Shown here: piece after piece, positions 1 to 14,000 of the stretch
Position numbering within the stretch: the first letter of the stretch is position 1
Layout of the letters: every line of letters starts with the position of its first letter
IMG/VR virus record: IMGVR_UViG_2684622620_000017
Coordinates: 1 to 25,267 of that record
Direction: 5' to 3' (one strand)
From: a virus
Taxonomy: Duplodnaviria > Heunggongvirae > Uroviricota > Caudoviricetes
DNA: 25,267 nucleotides
Position numbers and translations under genes: made by a program
The notes under the pieces: model-generated
Told to the model about the DNA's origin: nothing
The model's input: the letters and a program-made list of their open reading frames with translations, nothing else
Database searches by the model: none

Positions 1-1053
1 TTACGGGGTAATGCCAACCGCTGCCGCCACTTTGTCGCCACTTGGCAGCGTTGCCAGAGGGTTGAAACGGAGCGCCGTTTCCAGATGATCCGGTGCCAGA
101 TGAGCGTAACGCATAGTCATTTTTATATCGTGATGTCCGAGGATTTTTTGCAAAGCAAGGATATTTCCACCCGACATCATGAAATGCGCCGCAAACGTAT
201 GGCGCAGAACGTGTGTCAGTTGACCGCGAGGGAGGACGATAGACGTTTTTTCCATCACGGATAAAAATTGAAAATAGCAGTCTGTGAAGAAATTGAACCC
301 ATCAAGCGCCATGATCTCTTCGTAAAGCTCTTTACTGATAGGGATGCTTCTGTTTTTCTTCCCCTTCGTTCTTACAAAGGTAATTCGGTATTTGGTCACC
401 TGTGAACGAGTAAGATTTACGGCTTCTCGCCAGCGTGCGCCTGTGCTTAAGCATATCTTAACTACCAGTGCCAGAATTGGGTCATGACGTTTGCAATCAG
501 CCAGTAATTCAACAATCTGCTCATGGGTAAGCCATGCCATCTCTTTTTCTGCGATGGTGAATTTTCGCATGTTCTCCAGTGGGTTCGGATACGACCATTC
601 GCCCAGGCGGGATAGTTCGCTAAAAACACTACTTAGATAGCTTTGCTCCAGGTTAATGGTGACCGGGCTTGCTCCTTTCTTCCATTTCTCGCTGAAGTAG
701 ATCTCACCTGTCAGGCGTTTATCTCGATAGTGGGCAAACATTTTAGAGGTTAGATCGGTTGCAAGGGGATTGCCCAGAGCGTCAACCATCAGCAGCAATT
801 TGTCATAGACATGCTGCCCAGCTGTCAGTGATTTACCATGTAGTTTGAACCATAGCTCAACCACGTCTTTCAGTGTTCGACGATCCACTGATTCACCTAG
901 CCAGGGCTTTGCTTCGGTTTCTTCCATCGTGTGACGCTCAAAAGCCAGTGCTTCGCCTTTGGTGGCGAATTGTTTACGCACACGACGTCCACTACGTCCG
1001 GCGGGGTAACATTCGCAAAGCCATTTTCCTGTGGTGAGTTTTCGTACTGCCAT
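1..1053 (-). CDS. int: Phage integrase, tyrosine site-specific recombinase (P2/186 type)
   Basis: 350-aa ORF; C-terminal catalytic region with conserved R...HxxR...Y-type residues (e.g. LRHTFAAH, MRYAHL); GGAGGG RBS upstream of the ATG at 1053; position at the prophage end next to the immunity region. Confidence 0.9.
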   Translation of the reverse strand: MAVRKLTTGKWLCECYPAGRSGRRVRKQFATKGEALAFERHTMEETEAKPWLGESVDRRTLKDVVELWFKLHGKSLTAGQHVYDKLLLMVDALGNPLATDLTSKMFAHYRDKRLTGEIYFSEKWKKGASPVTINLEQSYLSSVFSELSRLGEWSYPNPLENMRKFTIAEKEMAWLTHEQIVELLADCKRHDPILALVVKICLSTGARWREAVNLTRSQVTKYRITFVRTKGKKNRSIPISKELYEEIMALDGFNFFTDCYFQFLSVMEKTSIVLPRGQLTHVLRHTFAAHFMMSGGNILALQKILGHHDIKMTMRYAHLAPDHLETALRFNPLATLPSGDKVAAAVGITP

Positions 1054-5673: not shown

Positions 5674-6527
5674 GCACCATCCTGAAATGGGCGGGAAATA
5701 AAACCGCCATAATGTCCGAACTGAAAAAGCATCTTCCTGCTGGCCCACGACTGGTTGAACCTTTCGCGGGTTCCTGTGCAGTGATGATGGAGACGGATTA
5801 CCCCAGCTATCTTGTTGCGGATATTAATCCTGATTTAATCAACCTCTATAAAAAGGTTGCTGCTGATTGTGAGGCGTTTATATCTCGTGCCAGAGCTTTA
5901 TTTGAGGAAGCAAACAGGGAGGTGGCTTATTACAACATAAGGCAGGAGTTTAATTACTCCACTGAAATTACTGATTTCATGAAAGCGGTATATTTTCTGT
6001 ATCTCAATCGTCATGGTTACCGTGGGTTATGTCGCTATAACAAGAGCGGGTATTTCAACATTCCCTACGGTAATTATAAAAATCCGTATTTCCCTGAAAA
6101 AGAAATTCGCGCATTTGCAGAGAAAGCCCAGCGGGCAACGTTTATCTGCGCCAGCTTTGATGAAACGCTGGCGATGTTGAAGGCGGGGGATGTGGTGTAT
6201 TGCGATCCGCCGTATGACGGTACGTTTTCCGGCTATCACACTGATGGTTTCACTGAAGATGACCAGTATCACCTGGCATCCGTTCTTGAACATCGGTCAT
6301 CAGAAGGACATCCGGTCATTGTTTCTAACAGTGACACATCCCTGATCCGTTCGCTGTATCGCAATTTTACTCACCACTACATCAAGGCAAAACGCAGCAT
6401 CGGTGTGGCAGCTGGTGATAGTAAATCTGCAACAGAAATCATTGCTGTTTCCGGGGCGCGCTGCTGGGTGGGATTTGATCCTTCGCGTGGCGTAGATAGT
6501 TCTGCTGTGTACGAGGTGCGTGTATGA
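5670..6527 (+). CDS. Dam-like N6-adenine DNA methyltransferase (orphan, no cognate endonuclease in window)
   Basis: N-terminal AdoMet-binding-like motif (LKWAGNK...VEPFAGS) and catalytic DPPY motif ([11 protein letters not shown]); GGAGGTG RBS upstream of the ATG at 5670, which overlaps the upstream stop. Confidence 0.8.
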
Positions 6528-8938
6528 GTCATGACGATATGAGCAACTCTAGCGGCTTTAACGAGGCCGCTGCATCATTTTCATGGAACGGCCCGAAAAA
6601 GGCCATTAACCCTTATCTGGACCCGGCGGAATTTGCGCCGGAGTCTGCACTTTCAAACCTGATCACTCTGTATGCTGCCGATAACGAGCAGGAACAACTG
6701 CGCCGCGAGGCACTGAGTGAGCAGGTCTGGGAGCGTTATTTCTTTAATGAATCCCGTGATCCTGTCCAGCGCGAAATGGAGCAGGATAAGCTCATTAGCC
6801 GGGCAAAGCTGGCGCATGAGCAGCAGCGTTTTAATCCAGACATGGTCATTCTGGCTGACGTCAACGCCCAGCCTTCCCATATCAGCAAGCCGCTGATGCA
6901 ACGTATTGAATACTTCAGCAGTCTGGGCAGGCCAAAGGCTTATTCCCGCTATTTGCGTGAGACGATTAAGCCATGTCTGGAACGACTGGAGCATGTACGC
7001 GACAGTCAGCTATCCACTTCTTTTCGCTTTATGGCAAGCCATGAAGGGCTGGACGGCCTGCTGATCCTGCCTGAAATGAGTCAGGATCAGGTGAAACGCC
7101 TGTCTACCCTTGTCGCTGCGCATATGAGCATGTGTCTTGATGCCGCTTGTGGTGATTTGTACGCCACCGATGATGTTAAGCCAGAAGAAATCCGCAAGAC
7201 ATGGGAAAAGGTGGCAGCGGAAACCCTACGTTTGGATGTCATCCCGCCTGCGTTTGAGCAACTCCGTCGGAAAAGAAACCGCCGTAAACCCGTGCCCTAT
7301 GAACTCATTCCGGGCTCGCTGGCGCGTATGCTGTGCGCCGACTGGTGGTATCGGAAATTGTGGAAGATGCGTTGCGAATGGCGGGAAGAGCAGTTGCGTG
7401 CTGTCTGCCTGGTCAGCAAAAAAGCATCTCCCTATGTCAGCTATGAAGCTGTGATGCATAAACGTGAGCAGTGCCGTAAGTCGCTGGAGTTTTTCCGTTC
7501 TCATGAACTGGTGAACGAAGACGGAGACGCGCTGGATATGGAAGATGTGGTAAACGCCAGCTGCAGCAACCCGGCGCATCGCCGCAATGAGATGATGGCC
7601 TGTGTTAAAGGTCTGGAGCTTATCGCGGAAATGCGCGGTGACTGCGCCGTTTTCTACACCATTACCTGTCCGTCACGTTTCCATTCCACGCTCAATAACG
7701 GCAGACCCAATCCGACCTGGAAAAACGCGACGGTAAGACAAAGCAGCGATTATCTGGTCGGTATGTTTGCTGCATTTCGTAAGGCGATGCACAAAGCCGG
7801 GTTGCGCTGGTATGGCGTGCGGGTGGCTGAGCCGCATCACGACGGCACAGTTCACTGGCACCTGTTGTGTTTCATGCGCAAAAAAGACCGCCGCGCCATT
7901 ACTGCATTGTTGCGTAAGTTTGCTATCCGTGAAGACCGCGAGGAGCTGGGCAATAACACGGGGCCGCGCTTTAAGTCTGAGCTGATTAACCCGCGCAAAG
8001 GAACGCCGACAAGCTACATAGCGAAATACATCAGTAAGAACATTGACGGGCGTGGTCTGGCTGGCGAGATCAGCAAGGAAACGGGTAAATCCCTGCGTGA
8101 TAACGCTGAATACGTGAATGCCTGGGCGTCTTTGCATCGTGTTCAGCAATTCCGCTTCTTTGGTATTCCGGGGCGTCAGGCTTACCGTGAACTGCGATTG
8201 CTGGCTGGTCAGGCGGCAAGGCAGCAGGGTGACAAAAAAGCAGGTGTGCCGGTACTGGATAACCCGCGCCTTGATGCCATTCTGGCTGCTGCTGATGCTG
8301 GTTGTTTTGCCACCTATATCATGAAGCAGGGAGGTGTACTGGTTCCCCGTAAATATCACCTCATCAGAACTGCTTATGAAATTAACGAAGAGCCGACCGC
8401 CTATGGCGATCACGGTATTCGTATTTATGGCATCTGGTCACCCATTGCAGAGGGCAAGATCTGCACTCATGCAGTGAAGTGGAAAATGGTTCGTAAGGCC
8501 GTTGACGTTCAGGAGGCGGTAGCCGACCAGAGCGCTTGCGCCCCTTGGACTCGTGGCAATAACTGTCCCCTTGCTGAAAATTTGAACCAACAAGGGAAAG
8601 ACAAATCAGCTGATGGGGACTCCAGAACGGATATTACCCGTATGAATGACAAGGAGTTGCACGATTACCTGCACAGTATGAGCAAAAAAGAGCGCCGGGA
8701 ACTGGCTGCAAGGTTACGCCAGGTGAAACCGAAACGGCGTAAAGACTACAAACAGCGAATTACAGACCATCAGCGACAGCAGCTCGTCTATGAACTGAAG
8801 TCCAGGGGATTTGATGGCAGCGAGAAAGAAGTCGATTTGCTCCTTCGCGGCGGCAGTATTCCGTCAGGAGCAGGCCTGCGTATCTTCTATCGGAACCAGC
8901 GTCTGAAGGAAGATGATAAGTGGCGGAACCTGTATTAA
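6524..8938 (+). CDS. A: Replication initiation protein A (rolling-circle nicking endonuclease, P2 gpA type)
   Basis: 804-aa ORF; HUH-like motif (TVHWHLL) and paired active-site tyrosines (YIAKYISK) typical of P2 A protein; position after the early operon. Confidence 0.9.
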
Positions 8939-9715: not shown

Positions 9716-10051
9716 TTACGAATGATCATTCTGTTTAGTCTTCATGAGAAAATCCCGAATCTTTGCCAAGTTTGAATTTTCGGGGATTGAATCCATGTAC
9801 GGATCACGCTCAAACACTAATTGCTCAGATTCAACGAAAGCCTGCCACTCTACTGGGTCTAGCTCAAATCCCATTGCTGTCATATCACTTTCATCTTCCC
9901 CCTCGATCCAGTGGACTAAATAAAACAATTCATCATCAGGAGAATCATCCTCACCATCAACAATATCAACATCGGTTACAGTGATACGTAGGGTGGGATC
10001 GATTTTTGAAACATAAATTCCTAACTGTGGTATAGGGGGAATATTGTTCAT
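9716..10051 (-). CDS. Small, strongly acidic hypothetical protein (111 aa)
   Basis: AGGAG RBS about 8 nt upstream of the ATG at 10051; translation is rich in Asp/Glu (e.g. DVDIVDGEDDSPDDELF, EGEDESD); lies in the accessory region between the DinI-like gene and the cos-like motif. Confidence 0.6.
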   Translation of the reverse strand: MNNIPPIPQLGIYVSKIDPTLRITVTDVDIVDGEDDSPDDELFYLVHWIEGEDESDMTAMGFELDPVEWQAFVESEQLVFERDPYMDSIPENSNLAKIRDFLMKTKQNDHS

Positions 10052-10299: not shown

Positions 10300-10329
10300 T
10301 TGACAGTGCATGACTATGCTGCATGAAAT
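10300..10329 (+). promoter_or_regulatory. Candidate sigma70 promoter in the accessory intergenic region
   Basis: Perfect -35 TTGACA at 10300-10305, 17-18-nt spacer, weak -10 (ATGAAA/TGAAAT) at about 10323-10329. Confidence 0.3.
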
Positions 10330-10363
10330 CGCATGATCGATTGAGGATCGTCTTTGCTCAGAT

Positions 10364-10386
10364 CCGCCAGAACTGGCGGGCTTTTG
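10364..10386 (+). terminator. Candidate intrinsic terminator (hairpin plus T-run) about 35 nt downstream of the candidate promoter
   Basis: CCGCCAG aa CTGGCGG inverted repeat (10364-10379) followed by GCTTTTG (10380-10386). Confidence 0.35.
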
Positions 10387-10430
10387 CTCATGTTATGCAT
10401 GTGCATGAAAACCACTGCATAAAGCGGGCA

Positions 10431-10449
10431 GGCGTGGCGGGGATACGAG
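10431..10449. other. cos-like motif (possible cohesive-end site)
   Basis: GGCGTGGCGGGGA matches the first 13 nt of the 19-nt cohesive end of 186/P2 as I recall it (GGCGTGGCGGGGAAAGCAT / GGCGAGGCGGGGAAAGCAC), then diverges; lies between the A-side accessory genes and the portal gene, as cos does in P2. Confidence 0.3.
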
Positions 10450-10582
10450 CGCGCGTTATGACAAATAGATGATTAGCCTGATTTATTTACAGCTGTATAA
10501 ATGATCACCTTGTAATTAGGTAAGTAATGTCTTCTATTATCATTGATTTGATAGGATTAATCTGTTTTTTGAGGATTAGAGG

Positions 10583-12919
10583 ATGATTGAAGAGGTAGTT
10601 ATTGACAAGGTAGGCTCATATAATGGCCCTACGCAGCTTTTACATGGACTTTCTAAATTTAACTATTTATATGGAGCTAATGGTGCAGGTAAAACAACTA
10701 TAAGTAAAATTATTAATGACCCTGAACAATATCCAACATGTCCGATTAAATGGAAAAATAATATATCTTTAATAAGCTACGTATATAATAAAGATTTTGT
10801 TGAAAGAAATTTTAGTCAAGATAAAATTAAAGGTGTATTTACCCTTGGTAGCGATCTTAAGGAGGATGAAGAGAAACTAATATCTCTTAAAGAAGAAAAA
10901 AATAAGCTAATGGAATCTATTATAGCAAAGGAAAAGTTAATAGATGGTGGTGATAATGAATTAGGCGTTATTAAAAAAATCGAAGACCATGAAAAATCTT
11001 TTAAAGATTCATGTTGGAAGCAAAAAGTAAAACATGACAATGTGTTCTCAAAGGCTTTTGAGGGATTAAGGAATAGTAGTGAAAAATTTAAAGCCAGAGT
11101 GTTGGCTGAGTATGAAAATAATACATCAGAAGTTTGCTCAATAGCAGAGTTAATTGAGAAAGCAAAAATTGTTTTTTCTACTGAATTGACATCACATGTA
11201 TCAATTACAATTCCATCCTTCAATGGGATAGATGATATTTTGAGTAGGGAAATTTGGAGTGAGCGTATTCTAGGGAAAAAAGACGTTAGTGTTTCAGACT
11301 TAATTACAATGCTCAATAATAGTGATTGGGTTAAGGAGGGTTTAACATATTTCAGTAAATCTAATCCCAAGTGCCCATTCTGCCAGCAGGATGTAAATGA
11401 TAATGTATTTGATAATCTTTCATCATATTTTGATAAAACATATGAGTTAAAAAAAAGAGAAATCGATGCATTGGTTTTACAATATGAATATCAACTTAAT
11501 AATATCTTGAAGGCGATAGATGATATAAGGGCGATTAAATCTCCATTCATAAATTATGAAGTGTTTGAGGATAAGGCTAAGATAGTATTATCTGAATTAA
11601 ACAAGAATTTTGAATTGGCAAAAAATAAACGCAATTTTTTAAGTGAATCAGTTCATTTTAGTGACTTAAGTGAAGTTGTTGATGATTTTATTTCTTTTTT
11701 GAATGATTCAAATCTATTGATAGATAATAATAACAAAATACATAGTAATAGAAAGGTAGAGGCTAGTAATCTTTCTAAGCAGATATGGGCATATATCGTA
11801 AAGGTGGAGTTAAAGTCTGAAATAACTTCTTACCGTAGCAAATCTGATAAATTTAATAGGACGTTACAAGGACTTAAATCTGGGATAGAAGAAGACAAAA
11901 AGAAGTTAATGTTAAATACTTCGGCTATTGAGGCAATTGAGTCTAATAAAACCAGTACTCTTCCAACTATTACAAAAATTAACAAGATTCTGGACTCTTA
12001 TGGCTTCAAAAATTTTTACTTAAAACCCTCCGAAGATAAAAAGCATTATATGATAGTGAGAGATAGTGGAGATAATGCTCGTACAACCCTTAGTGAGGGA
12101 GAAAAGACATTTATCACTTTTTTGTACTTTTATAGCCTTGTTAGAGGGAGTGATAATGCATCAGGTGTTTTAGATGATCGTGTTGTAGTATTTGATGATC
12201 CAATTTCAAGTTTAGATAGTGATATTCTGTTTATTGTAAGTTCGTTGATTAAAGATTTAATGGAGGATGTTCGTAAGGATGAAGGAAATATTAAGCAAAT
12301 TATATTCCTTACTCATAATATTTATTTTCATAAAGAGTTGACTTTTAATACCAAAAGATCCGGTAATCAAGCAATGAAAGAGGAGACTTTTTGGATTGTA
12401 AGGAAAAAAGGGAAGGTTTCATATCTTGAAAAGTGCGAATCAAACCCAATAAAAACGTCTTATGATTTGCTCTGGTGCGAATTGAGAAGAACAGACATTA
12501 ATAATAATACTATACAAAATACAATGCGAAGGATTTTGGAGAATTACTTTAAGATATTAGGTGGGATGGATATTAGGAAGCTTGAGTGTCATTTTTATGG
12601 TGATGAAAAAATCATATTTAAATCTTTAGTGTCATGGATTAATGATGGTTCTCATTTTGCAGGTGATGATCTTTATATGAATTTAGATACGGAGTCTGTG
12701 CAAAAATATTTAATTGTTTTTCAGAAGATATTTGAATGTAGTGAGCATACTGCCCATTACAAAATGATGATGGGTGAGTTTTATAAACCGTTAAATGAGT
12801 CACTTCATCTACAAAATGAGTTTGATATAGATGATAGTGCGAATGATGAGTATGCTTCGTCAAAAATTGAGATAAAAGATGGAATAAACACATCTCTACA
12901 TAGCAACACATATTTGTAA
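10583..12919 (+). CDS. AT-rich 778-aa ABC-type (Rad50/SMC-like) ATPase with coiled-coil insertion and CxxC motif; RloC/PrrC-like candidate anticodon nuclease / abortive-infection protein
   Basis: Walker A GANGAGKTT near the N-terminus; ABC signature-like LSEGEKT, Walker B/D-loop VVVFDDPISSLD and H-loop FLTHN about 480-560 aa downstream; long Lys/Glu-rich, likely coiled-coil insertion with a central CPFC (zinc-hook-like); C-terminal region has RRILE (R-x3-E) followed by conserved His candidates, reminiscent of the PrrC Arg-Glu-His nuclease triad; strong RBS GAGGATTAGAGG. Confidence 0.6.
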   Translation: MIEEVVIDKVGSYNGPTQLLHGLSKFNYLYGANGAGKTTISKIINDPEQYPTCPIKWKNNISLISYVYNKDFVERNFSQDKIKGVFTLGSDLKEDEEKLISLKEEKNKLMESIIAKEKLIDGGDNELGVIKKIEDHEKSFKDSCWKQKVKHDNVFSKAFEGLRNSSEKFKARVLAEYENNTSEVCSIAELIEKAKIVFSTELTSHVSITIPSFNGIDDILSREIWSERILGKKDVSVSDLITMLNNSDWVKEGLTYFSKSNPKCPFCQQDVNDNVFDNLSSYFDKTYELKKREIDALVLQYEYQLNNILKAIDDIRAIKSPFINYEVFEDKAKIVLSELNKNFELAKNKRNFLSESVHFSDLSEVVDDFISFLNDSNLLIDNNNKIHSNRKVEASNLSKQIWAYIVKVELKSEITSYRSKSDKFNRTLQGLKSGIEEDKKKLMLNTSAIEAIESNKTSTLPTITKINKILDSYGFKNFYLKPSEDKKHYMIVRDSGDNARTTLSEGEKTFITFLYFYSLVRGSDNASGVLDDRVVVFDDPISSLDSDILFIVSSLIKDLMEDVRKDEGNIKQIIFLTHNIYFHKELTFNTKRSGNQAMKEETFWIVRKKGKVSYLEKCESNPIKTSYDLLWCELRRTDINNNTIQNTMRRILENYFKILGGMDIRKLECHFYGDEKIIFKSLVSWINDGSHFAGDDLYMNLDTESVQKYLIVFQKIFECSEHTAHYKMMMGEFYKPLNESLHLQNEFDIDDSANDEYASSKIEIKDGINTSLHSNTYL

Positions 12920-12930
12920 TTTTATTACAA

Positions 12931-12960
12931 TTGCCAGTAGCAACAATACGGTACTGGCAA
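12931..12960. terminator. Hairpin between convergent genes (ATPase gene and portal gene Q); possible bidirectional terminator
   Basis: 9-bp inverted repeat TTGCCAGTA (12931-12939) / TACTGGCAA (12952-12960) with a 12-nt loop in the 49-bp gap between the two stop codons; AT-rich flanks. Confidence 0.35.
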
Positions 12961-12968
12961 CTAATATT

Positions 12969-14000
12969 TTAGTTAAGCTCATATGGAGAAAATTCTATAA
13001 GTTTTTCCCCGAGCCATGCATTAATTTCTCTAAATCGTTTTTGCAAAGGAATTAATTCATTTATCACAAAAACCTTACTAGCCTTCTCCACATCCCCAAA
13101 CCCCCCGACATTATTAGGCATAATCCCCATCATTTGCGGTGGAACGCGGTGTGCCGCCATCATGTCATCGCGACTAACATTTTTGATATTCAGAAACTCA
13201 TCCTTCGCTGCGACTTCTGATAACGGGATAATCTGAAGCCCGTCCTTTTTGCCGTTAGGTGAGTACATAAACAGGTTGCGGAAGTTGCCCGGCCCTTTGG
13301 CGCTTTTCATCGCATTGCGGAGGTTGTTCACATCCTCCTGGTTTTGCGCGGCATCGGTCATGTACATGATAAAGCCCGCATGACTGCCGTTAATGTAATA
13401 CTTGCGACGGAACAGCGTGGCGGACTCGTTGAGCAGGGCTGACGGAATGGCAGAAAGATAACCGGGCAGGCCGTAGATCTCCTGATTAATATCCGGTTCC
13501 ATCAGATGAAAAATGCTGCCTTTCGTGAACTGATACGGCTGGGTTGTCATACCGTATTGCACAAACCAGTAGGTATCCAGGTCTAATCCGCGTCGGGTGT
13601 ATTTTGCCAGCGCAGGTTCAAGGGCGATCACTTCACCGAAGCGGTTCGTGCGTTTCTCCAGATAGGCGTTGCCAAATACCAGATAGTCCTGCACAAAACG
13701 CGAAAAAGCTTGCTGGCTGAGCAGAGGATGAGGGATATAGGTACTGGTCAGAATGTTGCACTTTACTGCAATCGGGGAACTGTGATGCACGGCAGCGCGG
13801 AAGGTGCGCGCCAGTCCGTCAAAGCTGACGGGCGGCTCATACCAACGGTCCATCTGTACGCATTCCACATAGTCCAGTAATTCTCGGCGGTCCAGAACAG
13901 GAACGGGATCGCCGAAGCTGAATGCTTCGGCTGAAGTTTGGTTTTTATGCTGGATCTGATTCGTCGCCGCAGTGCGGTTTTTCTTACTCTTTCCCATCAA
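12969..14000 (-). CDS. Q: Portal (capsid vertex) protein, P2 gpQ type
   Basis: 343-aa ORF, the first gene of the leftward Q-P packaging operon; size and position fit P2 Q; start overlaps the P stop. Confidence 0.85.
   Translation of the reverse strand: MMGKSKKNRTAATNQIQHKNQTSAEAFSFGDPVPVLDRRELLDYVECVQMDRWYEPPVSFDGLARTFRAAVHHSSPIAVKCNILTSTYIPHPLLSQQAFSRFVQDYLVFGNAYLEKRTNRFGEVIALEPALAKYTRRGLDLDTYWFVQYGMTTQPYQFTKGSIFHLMEPDINQEIYGLPGYLSAIPSALLNESATLFRRKYYINGSHAGFIMYMTDAAQNQEDVNNLRNAMKSAKGPGNFRNLFMYSPNGKKDGLQIIPLSEVAAKDEFLNIKNVSRDDMMAAHRVPPQMMGIMPNNVGGFGDVEKASKVFVINELIPLQKRFREINAWLGEKLIEFSPYELN

Follow-up and report, generated by a model that had tools for sequence, protein, structure and literature searches.

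We find that a 778-aa protein encoded in a 25,267-nucleotide stretch of viral DNA (the whole stretch analysed, here called the window) is probably an RloC-family abortive-infection device made of a single polypeptide, carried as cargo in the gpA-gpQ hotspot of its prophage and equipped with a proposed anticodon nuclease under the control of a hook and an ATPase. The host element is a P2-family (186/Fels-2-like) prophage of E. coli. Phage-defence genes of this kind have been catalogued before and are fairly ordinary, and this one adds no new type of system. P2-prophage AAA_13 proteins were listed among the RloC orthologues in 2008 (Davidov & Kaufmann, PMC2610378), and RloC-like P2-prophage proteins were discussed as prophage ABC-HEPN proteins in 2013. 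The gpA-gpQ interval has been described as a variable defence hotspot of P2-like phages (Rousset et al. 2022, PMC9122126), and Table S5A of that study contains WP_106509408 itself; AAA_13 cargo is there termed 'RloC-like' and, with 420 occurrences, forms system 5, fifth in frequency among P2-hotspot cargos (PMC9122126). Our literature search found no paper linking AAA_13 with phage defence and no experimental paper on a P2-borne RloC, and returned census mentions only for PDC-S06, which PADLOC still classes as a candidate system.

The AT-rich open reading frame described in the first-pass annotation is intact, and every motif quoted for it lies in the protein where it had been placed (Table 1). 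The GC content of this frame is 0.304, compared with 0.488 in the window as a whole and about 0.55 in the structural genes of the phage, and the low value marks the gene as a foreign moron. Pfam AAA_13 (PF13166) matched aa 10-718 of the 778-aa protein with E=1.5e-163 and 546.7 bits, where the cut-off is 36, and all but the first of its 713 profile positions (2-713) were aligned; this score is far beyond chance. The PADLOC PDC-S06 model PDLC04890 matched aa 1-734 (E=1.6e-266; 884.6 bits; profile 1-726 of 732), and the PADLOC PrrC model gave a weaker match to aa 460-704 (E=6e-11) that reaches into the C-terminal domain; NCBIfam held no matching entry for a PrrC model. The profile comparison that had been proposed with the AAA_13/PrrC/RloC families therefore placed the protein within them at full length, and the best match was not to another ATPase family with a non-nuclease C-terminus. 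The RefSeq entry for the protein, WP_106509408.1, is labelled 'AAA family ATPase', and several homologues carry the JGI label 'wobble nucleotide-excising tRNase'. The published rule for RloC proteins calls for PrrC-like ABC motifs, a coiled-coil/CXXC insert, an R-x3-E-x36-52-His motif with the His often after Ser, and a length of 658-897 aa (PMC2610378). All of these sequence features of Davidov & Kaufmann (2008) are present in the protein, and its 778 aa fall within the size range.

Table 1. Positions of the RloC-family gene, its motifs and domains, and the flanking features of the prophage in the window.
Feature	Coordinates	Strand	Details
Gene A	6524..8938		replication gene, left side of hotspot
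Conserved cos-region block	10305..10455		cos-like core GGCGTGGCGGGGA at 10431-10443
AT-rich cargo-specific leader	10456..10582	+	ribosome-binding site GAGGA, 10571-10575, 7 nt upstream of ATG
RloC-family gene	10583..12919	+	778 aa; ATG at 10583, stop ends at 12919
Walker A / P-loop	10673..10699	+	GANGAGKTT, aa 31-39
Helical insert splitting the ATPase head	10859..11992	+	about aa 93-470, roughly 380 residues (DSSP of model)
Zinc-hook-type motif	11372..11383	+	CPFC, C264-x-x-C267, aa 264-267
ABC signature motif	12089..12109	+	LSEGEKT, aa 503-509
Walker B and D-loop	12182..12217	+	VVVFDDPISSLD, aa 534-545
H-loop / switch	12305..12319	+	FLTHN, aa 575-579, H578
C-terminal domain	12368..12796	+	aa 596-738, beta-hairpin then six-helix bundle
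Candidate catalytic R649	12527..12529	+	within RRILENYF, aa 649-656
Candidate catalytic E653	12539..12541	+	within RRILENYF
Candidate catalytic S690-H691	12650..12655	+	within NDGSH, aa 687-691
Acidic Ser/Asn-rich tail	12797..12916	+	aa 739-778, predicted disordered
Hairpin	12931..12960		9-bp perfect stem TTGCCAGTA/TACTGGCAA, within the 49 nt that separate the RloC-like gene from the convergent gene Q
Portal gene Q	12969..14000	-	right boundary of hotspot

Conservation was scored in 146 representatives of 50%-identity clusters spanning many phyla. Walker A residues G31, G36 and K37 were present in all 144 representatives that are ungapped at these columns (146 aligned), and S504, G506 and E507 of the signature, D538, D539 and D545 of the Walker B/D-loop, and H578 of the H-loop (146/146) were invariant across the 146 aligned. 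These motifs fall in an ABC head made up of aa 1-92 and about aa 471-590. In the AlphaFold2 model of the protein (mean pLDDT 81.8), this head resembles the Rad50/SMC type; Foldseek comparison with solved structures ranked Rad50 heads best, followed by SMC, LmuB, retron PtuA and AriA, and the best of the top matches, all Rad50 chains, aligned over about 650-860 columns. Searching PDB sequences with the single sequence and with a profile turned up no solved relatives, the only hints being non-significant Rad50 zinc-hook fragments, and the PDB copy searched held no solved structure for any AAA_13/PrrC/RloC family member. The earlier description of the protein as an ABC ATPase split in the manner of Rad50 and bearing a CxxC motif is thus borne out by the profiles, the homology to RloC orthologues and the Rad50/SMC-like predicted head alike.

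The insert that splits the head has arms of about 170-190 aa each, and its helices in the model (DSSP) include 93-121, 129-151, 285-318, 325-351, 363-388, 390-409 and 411-456. Its Lys/Glu-rich character, reported earlier, holds at 12.7% Lys and 9.8% Glu; the accompanying statement that CPFC sits at its midpoint holds roughly, since the midpoint is aa 281 and the motif lies near the middle. C264, P265 and C267 were found in 146/146 representatives, and CPFC is aligned to CAFC, the hook of G. kaustophilus RloC (E=0.002, using fragments from the 2008 supplement). Against 1L8D, a structure of the Rad50 zinc hook, the profile match was weak and not significant (E=0.16). In the AlphaFold2 model, the ascending arm consists of short helices interrupted by conserved motifs that are not coiled coil; the conserved motifs of the insert are C144-W145, G161-x-R163, G231-K-x-D and N246-S-D-W. 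The pLDDT around the hook is just 65-71. Both features tell against the RloC reading to some degree, though it is plausible that CPFC caps an antiparallel coiled coil as the hook of Rad50 does.

Beyond the H-loop there are 199 residues, fewer than the roughly 220 first counted, and most of them belong to a C-terminal domain that was modelled with a pLDDT of 83.1 and a pTM of 0.81. Searched alone, this domain still matches Pfam AAA_13 (E=4.8e-31). The arrangement R649-x3-E653-x37-S690-H691 fits the published RloC rule R-x3-E-x36-52-(S)H exactly, and its residues are kept in nearly all of the representatives (R649 in 146/146, E653 in 143/146, S690 in 144/146 and H691 in 145/146) and are invariant in a set of 118 homologues. 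N646, W631 and H725 are likewise invariant in the domain. The PrrC/RloC-type Arg-Glu-His domain that had been proposed thus agrees with the published motif, is near-invariant in the 146 representatives and lies where the PrrC profile extends, and none of the outcomes that had been named as contradicting the reading was observed. [quoted passage not shown] No Arg is present 4-6 residues before H691 (W-I-N-D-G-S-H), so the canonical HEPN R-x4-6-H spacing is not there, and the domain gave no match to a Pfam HEPN family. Position 654 (R649+5) is Asn here and His in 28/146 relatives, and varies between N, Y and H across the family. Our comparison with solved structures found none resembling the fold of this domain. 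The tail that follows has a pLDDT below 50 for aa 740-778 and occurs mainly in the enterobacterial clade, in which the closest homologues are 755-782 aa long against about 735-747 aa for most others.

Among named RloC orthologues, YP_852004, a 738-aa P2-prophage protein of E. coli APEC O1 that is entry 51 of the 2008 orthologue table (Davidov & Kaufmann), aligns with the protein along its entire length at 28% identity (E=1e-45), and the protein matches Q369M3, a member of the Davidov & Kaufmann alignment, at E=3e-18. Comparison with a Geobacillus RloC fragment, derived by OCR from Fig. S1 and covering the hook region only, gave 26% identity over 129 aa. The PDLC04890 subfamily keeps an identity of about 40% between Enterobacteria on the one hand and Acidobacteria, Planctomycetes and a methanogen on the other; there are 1122 cluster representatives within E<=1e-30 and 3652 when the limit is relaxed to E<=0.001. 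Relatives were confirmed by tblastn in at least 586 species genomes, and a tblastn search of plasmids with the C-terminal half recovered long RloC-type genes only. The proposal that the gene stands alone agrees with its neighbourhoods, as 80 loci from many phyla showed no conserved partner gene and no neighbour cluster occurred in more than 12 of them.

In the window the gene order is A, a DinI-like gene, the cos block, the RloC-like gene and Q, and the prophage neighbours include a hypothetical gene at 9716..10051. We considered the latter as a partner of the RloC-like gene and rejected it, as it accompanies many different cargos; it belongs to the prophage backbone. The placement reported by the first-pass annotation, between a cos-like motif and the stop codon of Q, is correct, with the conserved block on the left and Q on the right. 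Of 5426 complete E. coli genomes, about 1260 have this block at 84-100% identity, and it recurs in Fels-2, SopEPhi and P2-like phages of Yersinia and Klebsiella; its alignments end at query position 256-259 (about 10456 in the window), where the variable cargo begins. A search for the P2 cos 19-mer gave no match within 3 mismatches, and phage records are not opened at cos, so we regard the block as a putative cos site. The leader and the RloC-like gene co-occur in just 12 genomes, and a consensus scan upstream of the gene found no promoter-like site above background. Downstream, the hairpin folds as RNA at -16 kcal/mol (z = -4.8; 0/200 shuffles fold as well) and is likely a terminator. The site itself had been called unusual, which is not supported, since the cos-to-Q interval is the published P2-like defence hotspot and held other cargo in 3/3 sampled relatives (DprA, KAP NTPase or TIGR02391 genes). 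Among about 1250 E. coli genomes with the corresponding prophage backbone region, just 21 carry the RloC-like gene and others have unrelated cargo in its place; the gene is therefore dispensable for the phage.

From homology alone we infer tRNA cleavage, toxicity and defence, and the steps proposed here are drawn from experiments on the RloC proteins of G. kaustophilus and A. baylyi. The protein would dimerise via its ATPase heads, with the zinc-hook joints holding the nuclease silent. DNA termini, arising from phage-induced breakdown of host DNA or from DNA damage, would then bind, and one round of ATP hydrolysis would switch on the nuclease, which would cleave a small number of tRNAs in the anticodon loop, to either side of the wobble base. 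Such a lesion would withstand T4-type tRNA repair and halt translation, so that the superinfecting phage would fail and the lysogen population would be protected together with its prophage. The device would work without a partner gene. Characterised RloC proteins show DNA- and ATP-dependent activation, are activated by inducers of double-strand breaks and become constitutively active when the hook is mutated (PMC3458546, PMC3874168), and mutation of R692, E696 or H737 in Geobacillus RloC abolishes both nuclease activity and toxicity (PMC2610378). RloC is known to target tRNA-Glu, tRNA-Gln and tRNA-Lys.

The target is one point on which another reading might be preferred. We think it unlikely that the same architecture and abortive logic act on something other than the tRNA anticodon loop, such as mRNA, rRNA, another region of tRNA or even DNA. 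It is true that the catalytic triad alone is shared with the characterised enzymes, that the tRNA-recognition region described for PrrC has no known counterpart in RloC (PMC2610378), that the PDLC04890 subfamily is distinct from the APEC O1-type model PDLC04886, and that the C-terminal domain has no structural neighbour and a variable position 654. However, the two characterised RloC proteins, which are 33% identical, both cleave tRNA anticodon loops (PMC3874168), the triad and its Ser-His signature are invariant in the RloC-like family, and the match to the PrrC profile continues through the nuclease domain. A related reading, which we rate as improbable though somewhat less so, is that the PDLC04890 subfamily is not a simple copy of Geobacillus RloC but, among the ABC-ATPase toxins, a sensor-effector variant of a new kind. 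The module on the ascending arm by the hook (C144-W145, G161-x-R163, G231-K-x-D and N-S-D-W 246-249) could then sense a cue other than DNA ends, and the C-terminal domain, which is unlike any solved fold, could have a different RNA target.

The protein might instead be non-autonomous in the manner of PrrC, silenced by a type I restriction-modification (R-M) enzyme of the host and firing when a phage anti-restriction factor disables that enzyme. Kaufmann's group raised R-M regulation in trans (PMC2610378, PMC3874168), and in our set of 80 homologues 7-12 lie directly after hsdS of a type I R-M operon at a spacing of -3 to +10 nt, while ArdC anti-restriction genes adjoin three homologues and others adjoin RhuM or integrases, as described for rloC. 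Against this, 70 of the 80 have no R-M neighbour, hsd genes are absent from both the window and the sister prophage, and a prophage that hops between hosts cannot depend on a specific host R-M enzyme; moreover, G. kaustophilus RloC is regulated internally by hook, DNA and ATP (PMC3458546), and A. baylyi RloC is activated in an R-M-deficient host too (PMC3874168), so that we give this arrangement little chance. The Rad50- and SMC-like head, the CxxC insert and the adjoining cos would also suit a Rad50/SbcC/SMC-like ATPase serving the prophage in repair, recombination or DNA tethering, for example of cos ends, and having no role as a nuclease toxin. This is highly improbable, as the gene has no Mre11/SbcD-type partner among its neighbours, the arms are much shorter than those of Rad50, the extra and strongly conserved C-terminal domain bears the anticodon-nuclease triad, and the gene is dispensable and, at 30% GC, a foreign moron.

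The value of the RloC-family device is practical, as its subfamily is extremely widespread and still ranks as a PADLOC "candidate". A compact, single-gene representative that is native to E. coli and sits in a well-understood prophage would be a convenient model, which could reveal how a Rad50-like hook and an ATPase control a tRNA nuclease and which phages are stopped. If the variant-sensor reading were true, a structure of the P2-hotspot protein would be the first for any member of AAA_13.

The protein is closest in design to the RloC proteins of Geobacillus kaustophilus HTA426 and Acinetobacter baylyi ADP1. Like them, it is a single polypeptide with ABC motifs shared with PrrC, a helical insert whose central C-x-F-C follows a W-V-x-x-G motif, and a C-proximal R-x3-E-x36-52-S-H; its homologues, too, mostly stand alone and are at times found in type I R-M loci or by ArdC/RhuM. 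Unlike the characterised RloC proteins, it has an extra disordered acidic tail, is borne by a prophage rather than a transposon or chromosome, and belongs to a separate and very widespread subfamily (PDLC04890) of low identity to them, the Geobacillus comparison being one of a hook-region fragment. APEC O1 YP_852004 / WP_000423308 (the APECO1_4465 group) occupies the same gpA/cos-gpQ slot of a P2-like prophage and shares the domain order, the CPFCQ hook and the M-R-x-I-L-E and G-S-H motifs. It differs in its low identity (28%), in having PDLC04886 and not PDLC04890 as its best PADLOC model, and in lying on the opposite strand relative to Q.

Judged from the PADLOC PrrC profile and the published motif rule, on which the relation of its triad to R320/E324/H356 of PrrC rests, the protein appears to share with E. 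coli PrrC (prr locus) an ABC ATPase N-domain, a C-terminal Arg-Glu-His nuclease and an abortive-infection logic. PrrC, however, is 341-416 aa long and has no coiled-coil/zinc-hook insert, where the RloC-like protein has 778 aa and an insert of roughly 380 aa. Further, PrrC is always found within a type Ic hsd locus whose enzyme silences it, whereas the RloC-like gene lies among prophage genes, and PrrC makes one repairable cut 5' to the wobble base (PMC2610378, PMC3458546). P2 Old sits in this very hotspot in P2 itself and likewise couples an ABC-ATPase sensor to a nuclease, and according to a 2026 preprint it cleaves host tRNAs and aborts infection. The effector of Old, of the class of PARIS AriA/AriB, Gabija and Septu, is a TOPRIM domain, unlike the helical domain of the PrrC/RloC type, and is not accompanied by a CxxC hook, and the likeness is confined to the ATPase; no TOPRIM match was found in the RloC-like protein with Pfam or PADLOC, and similarity to the AriA ATPase was weak (E=4.8e-8). 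With Rad50/SbcC/SMC and Lamassu LmuB the protein shares a head fold split by helical arms, along with the CxxC hook motif in the case of Rad50, and weak sequence matches (SMC_N, E=2e-4; LmuB, E=3e-13). Unlike these, it has no Mre11/SbcD or LmuA partner, its arms are far shorter, and a nuclease-type C-terminal domain has been added.

Davidov & Kaufmann described RloC proteins as distant PrrC homologs of 658-897 aa with three defining features: ABC motifs in common with PrrC, a helical insert with a central CXXC that splits the ATPase, and an Arg-X3-Glu-X36-52-His motif in which a Ser often precedes the His (PMC2610378). Alanine at R692, E696 or H737 of the Geobacillus RloC led to loss of nuclease activity and toxicity, and hook mutants of RloC were hyperactive (PMC2610378). 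The window protein (RefSeq WP_106509408) has the hook C264-P-F-C267 and the motif R649-x3-E653, with 37 residues between E653 and the His of S690-H691. The triad, S690 and CPFC showed no variation in an alignment of 118 homologs. Among 146 full-length sequences, each standing for one 50%-identity cluster, C264, P265, C267, R649, H725, N646 and W631 were kept in all 146, H691 in 145, S690 in 144 and E653 in 143 (Asp in the other 3).

Homology to previously listed RloC proteins was also found. The APEC O1 protein (YP_852004 / WP_000423308), RloC orthologue 51 in the 2008 supplement of Davidov & Kaufmann, is encoded in the slot between genes A and Q of the APEC O1 P2 prophage. Its full-length alignment with the window protein (28% identity, E = 1e-45) takes in CPFCQ, M-R-x-I-L-E and G-S-H. 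For the Geobacillus RloC, the query consisted only of insert fragments obtained by OCR from Fig. S1 of the paper; here the hook aligned with the window protein (26% identity over 129 aa, E = 0.002) in the pattern ...NNxD..WV+EGL...C-x-F-C... and Q369M3, from the same figure, was a clear member of the subfamily to which the window protein itself belongs (E = 3e-18). Because it combines the published motifs with homology to members listed in 2008, the window protein is, as judged from its sequence, an RloC in every sequence feature by which the group was defined. The RloC-like reading of the first-pass annotation is thus supported, with enzymatic activity as a prediction, and the observation as a whole is confirmed: the ORF is intact and direct reading of the sequence placed each quoted motif where that annotation had it.

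Profile searches placed the protein in a very large family, for which a full-library search gave 3652 cluster representatives with E<=0.001 and, at the stricter limit of E<=1e-30, 1122. Pfam AAA_13 covers residues 10 to 718 over the whole 713-position model (E = 1.5e-163), and the PADLOC candidate single-gene system PDC-S06 (model PDLC04890) matches end to end (E = 1.6e-266). Residues 460-704 match the PrrC model of PADLOC (E = 6e-11), the LmuB, MADS3 and AriA models match weakly, and a search of NCBIfam with the window protein found no model. Some homologs carry the JGI label "wobble nucleotide-excising tRNase". The gene is a new member of an already catalogued kind, and its value rests mainly on the size of the subfamily and the lack of a solved structure for the family, as sequence and profile searches of one PDB copy found no AAA_13, PrrC or RloC protein.

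In a full-length AlphaFold2 model built from 118 sequences (mean pLDDT 81.8), an ABC head and an insert made up of several long helices are accompanied by a beta-hairpin at residues 601-618, a C-domain of helices and, at residues 740-778, a disordered tail. The CPFC motif is in the short loop that connects helix 247-260 to helix 273-282, where pLDDT is 65-71. Foldseek searches of the PDB with this model ranked Rad50 heads at the top (E ~1e-6), followed by cohesin/condensin SMC heads, Lamassu LmuB, retron PtuA-type ATPases and AriA. The C-domain modeled alone reached pLDDT 83 and pTM 0.81. A HEPN assignment has been proposed for PrrC/RloC-type C-domains (Anantharaman et al., PMC3710099). The canonical HEPN R-x4-6-H spacing is absent around H691 of the window protein. 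At position 654 (R649+5) the window protein has Asn, whereas 28 of the 146 representatives have His and 40 have Tyr; a subset of the family has the canonical HEPN-like R-x4-H because of His at this position, and H691 stays invariant. The acidic, Ser/Asn-rich tail (aa 739-778) is found in the closest enterobacterial homologs (755-782 aa) and is absent from most family members (~735-747 aa).

Features of the window, a P2-family (186/Fels-2-like) prophage of E. coli
Feature	Position	Strand	Remark
Integrase	1..1053	-	
Two AT-rich ORFs	between integrase and CI		no assignment
CI, CII, Fil and Dam genes	after the two AT-rich ORFs, before gene A		
Replication gene A	6524..8938		
Small hypothetical gene and DinI-like gene	between gene A and 9716..10051		
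Hypothetical gene	9716..10051	-	WP_001059831, phrog_17127; 111-aa acidic protein; just before cos block
Putative cos block	10305-10455		150 bp
RloC-like ORF	10583..12919	+	778 aa
Codon of position 654	12542..12544		
Acidic tail	12797..12916		
Hairpin	12931..12960		
Portal gene Q	12969..14000	-	convergent to RloC-like ORF
Terminase gene P	after Q		
Head, lysis and tail genes	beyond P		

The RloC-like ORF, with a GC content of 0.304, is poorer in GC than the window as a whole (0.488) and the structural genes (~0.55). Its site had been considered unusual in the first-pass annotation. However, Rousset et al. (PMC9122126) described the cos-proximal gpA-gpQ region as a defense hotspot with 1650 gene arrangements, and "AAA_13" stands fifth in their Table S5B, where it is counted 420 times and marked "RloC-like". 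WP_106509408 itself is an entry of their Table S5A. The cos block, with GGCGTGGCGGGGA, is common to ~1260 of 5426 complete E. coli genomes and is also present in Fels-2, SopEPhi and other P2-like phages. Homology with other prophages ends at ~10456, and all three prophages sampled carry other genes between the cos block and the portal stop codon (a TIGR02391 protein, DprA and a KAP-type P-loop NTPase). The varied cargo and the published hotspot therefore make the site a typical one. This particular gene is present in 21 of the 5426 genomes, each time adjoining the portal gene. The 49-nt gap between the two convergent genes holds a perfect 9-bp hairpin (TTGCCAGTA / TACTGGCAA, 12-nt loop; -16 kcal/mol, z -4.8), which is probably a terminator shielding the moron from late transcription. 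The gene for WP_001059831 recurs beside many unrelated hotspot cargos (RVT_1, PIN_12, DprA) and, because it is found with so many of them, appears to be conserved prophage backbone.

We also surveyed the neighbors of homologs at 80 loci in species genomes of many phyla and one archaeon. Neighbor clustering found no gene common to more than 12 loci, and the recurrent neighbors (type I R-M genes, DUF2130, RhuM, ArdC, large helicases, integrases) agree with the mix reported for rloC (PMC2610378, PMC3710099). No such partner is present in the window, in keeping with the earlier proposal of a stand-alone effector. At least 7 of the 80 loci have hsdS directly upstream of the homolog (spacing -3 to +10 nt), the homolog following the hsdS stop in a type I R-M operon (loci L019, L027, L032, L047, L054, L060 and L083). 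This arrangement is shared with prrC and the original Campylobacter rloC, whereas the window copy is without an R-M neighbor. In 6-8 of the 80 genomes a same-strand gene for a DUF2130 protein (~430-450 aa) lies 0-58 nt upstream or downstream of the RloC-like gene (L008, L017, L048, L059, L080 and L085), suggesting a possible recurrent partner; we found no mention of this pairing in the published RloC accounts examined. Within the tra operon of a conjugative Yersinia enterocolitica plasmid, the gene for a 982-aa 'AAA family ATPase' with an RloC-like C-terminal half (L086, 2718..5666) overlaps a TraG N-terminal-domain gene at the end of the latter. Genes of this type may be the reason why Pfam counts many conjugative-transfer proteins among the members of AAA_13.

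Domain anatomy, motif conservation and hotspot location were established directly for the window protein, and we infer the steps of its mechanism from the RloC proteins of G. kaustophilus and A. baylyi (PMC3458546, PMC3874168). By this analogy, joined hooks would keep the nuclease silent, DNA (preferably linear) and ATP hydrolysis would activate it, and activity would last while the nuclease sits on DNA ends. It would cleave the anticodon loop of tRNAs both 5' and 3' of the wobble base. Double-strand-break inducers, and probably also phage-induced degradation of host DNA, would be the trigger, and in a lysogen superinfecting lytic phages would be aborted. For Old, the cargo that P2 itself carries at this locus, a 2026 preprint reports tRNase activity under the control of an ABC ATPase, with TOPRIM as the effector. 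The window gene would thus be a functional analog of Old with another effector domain.
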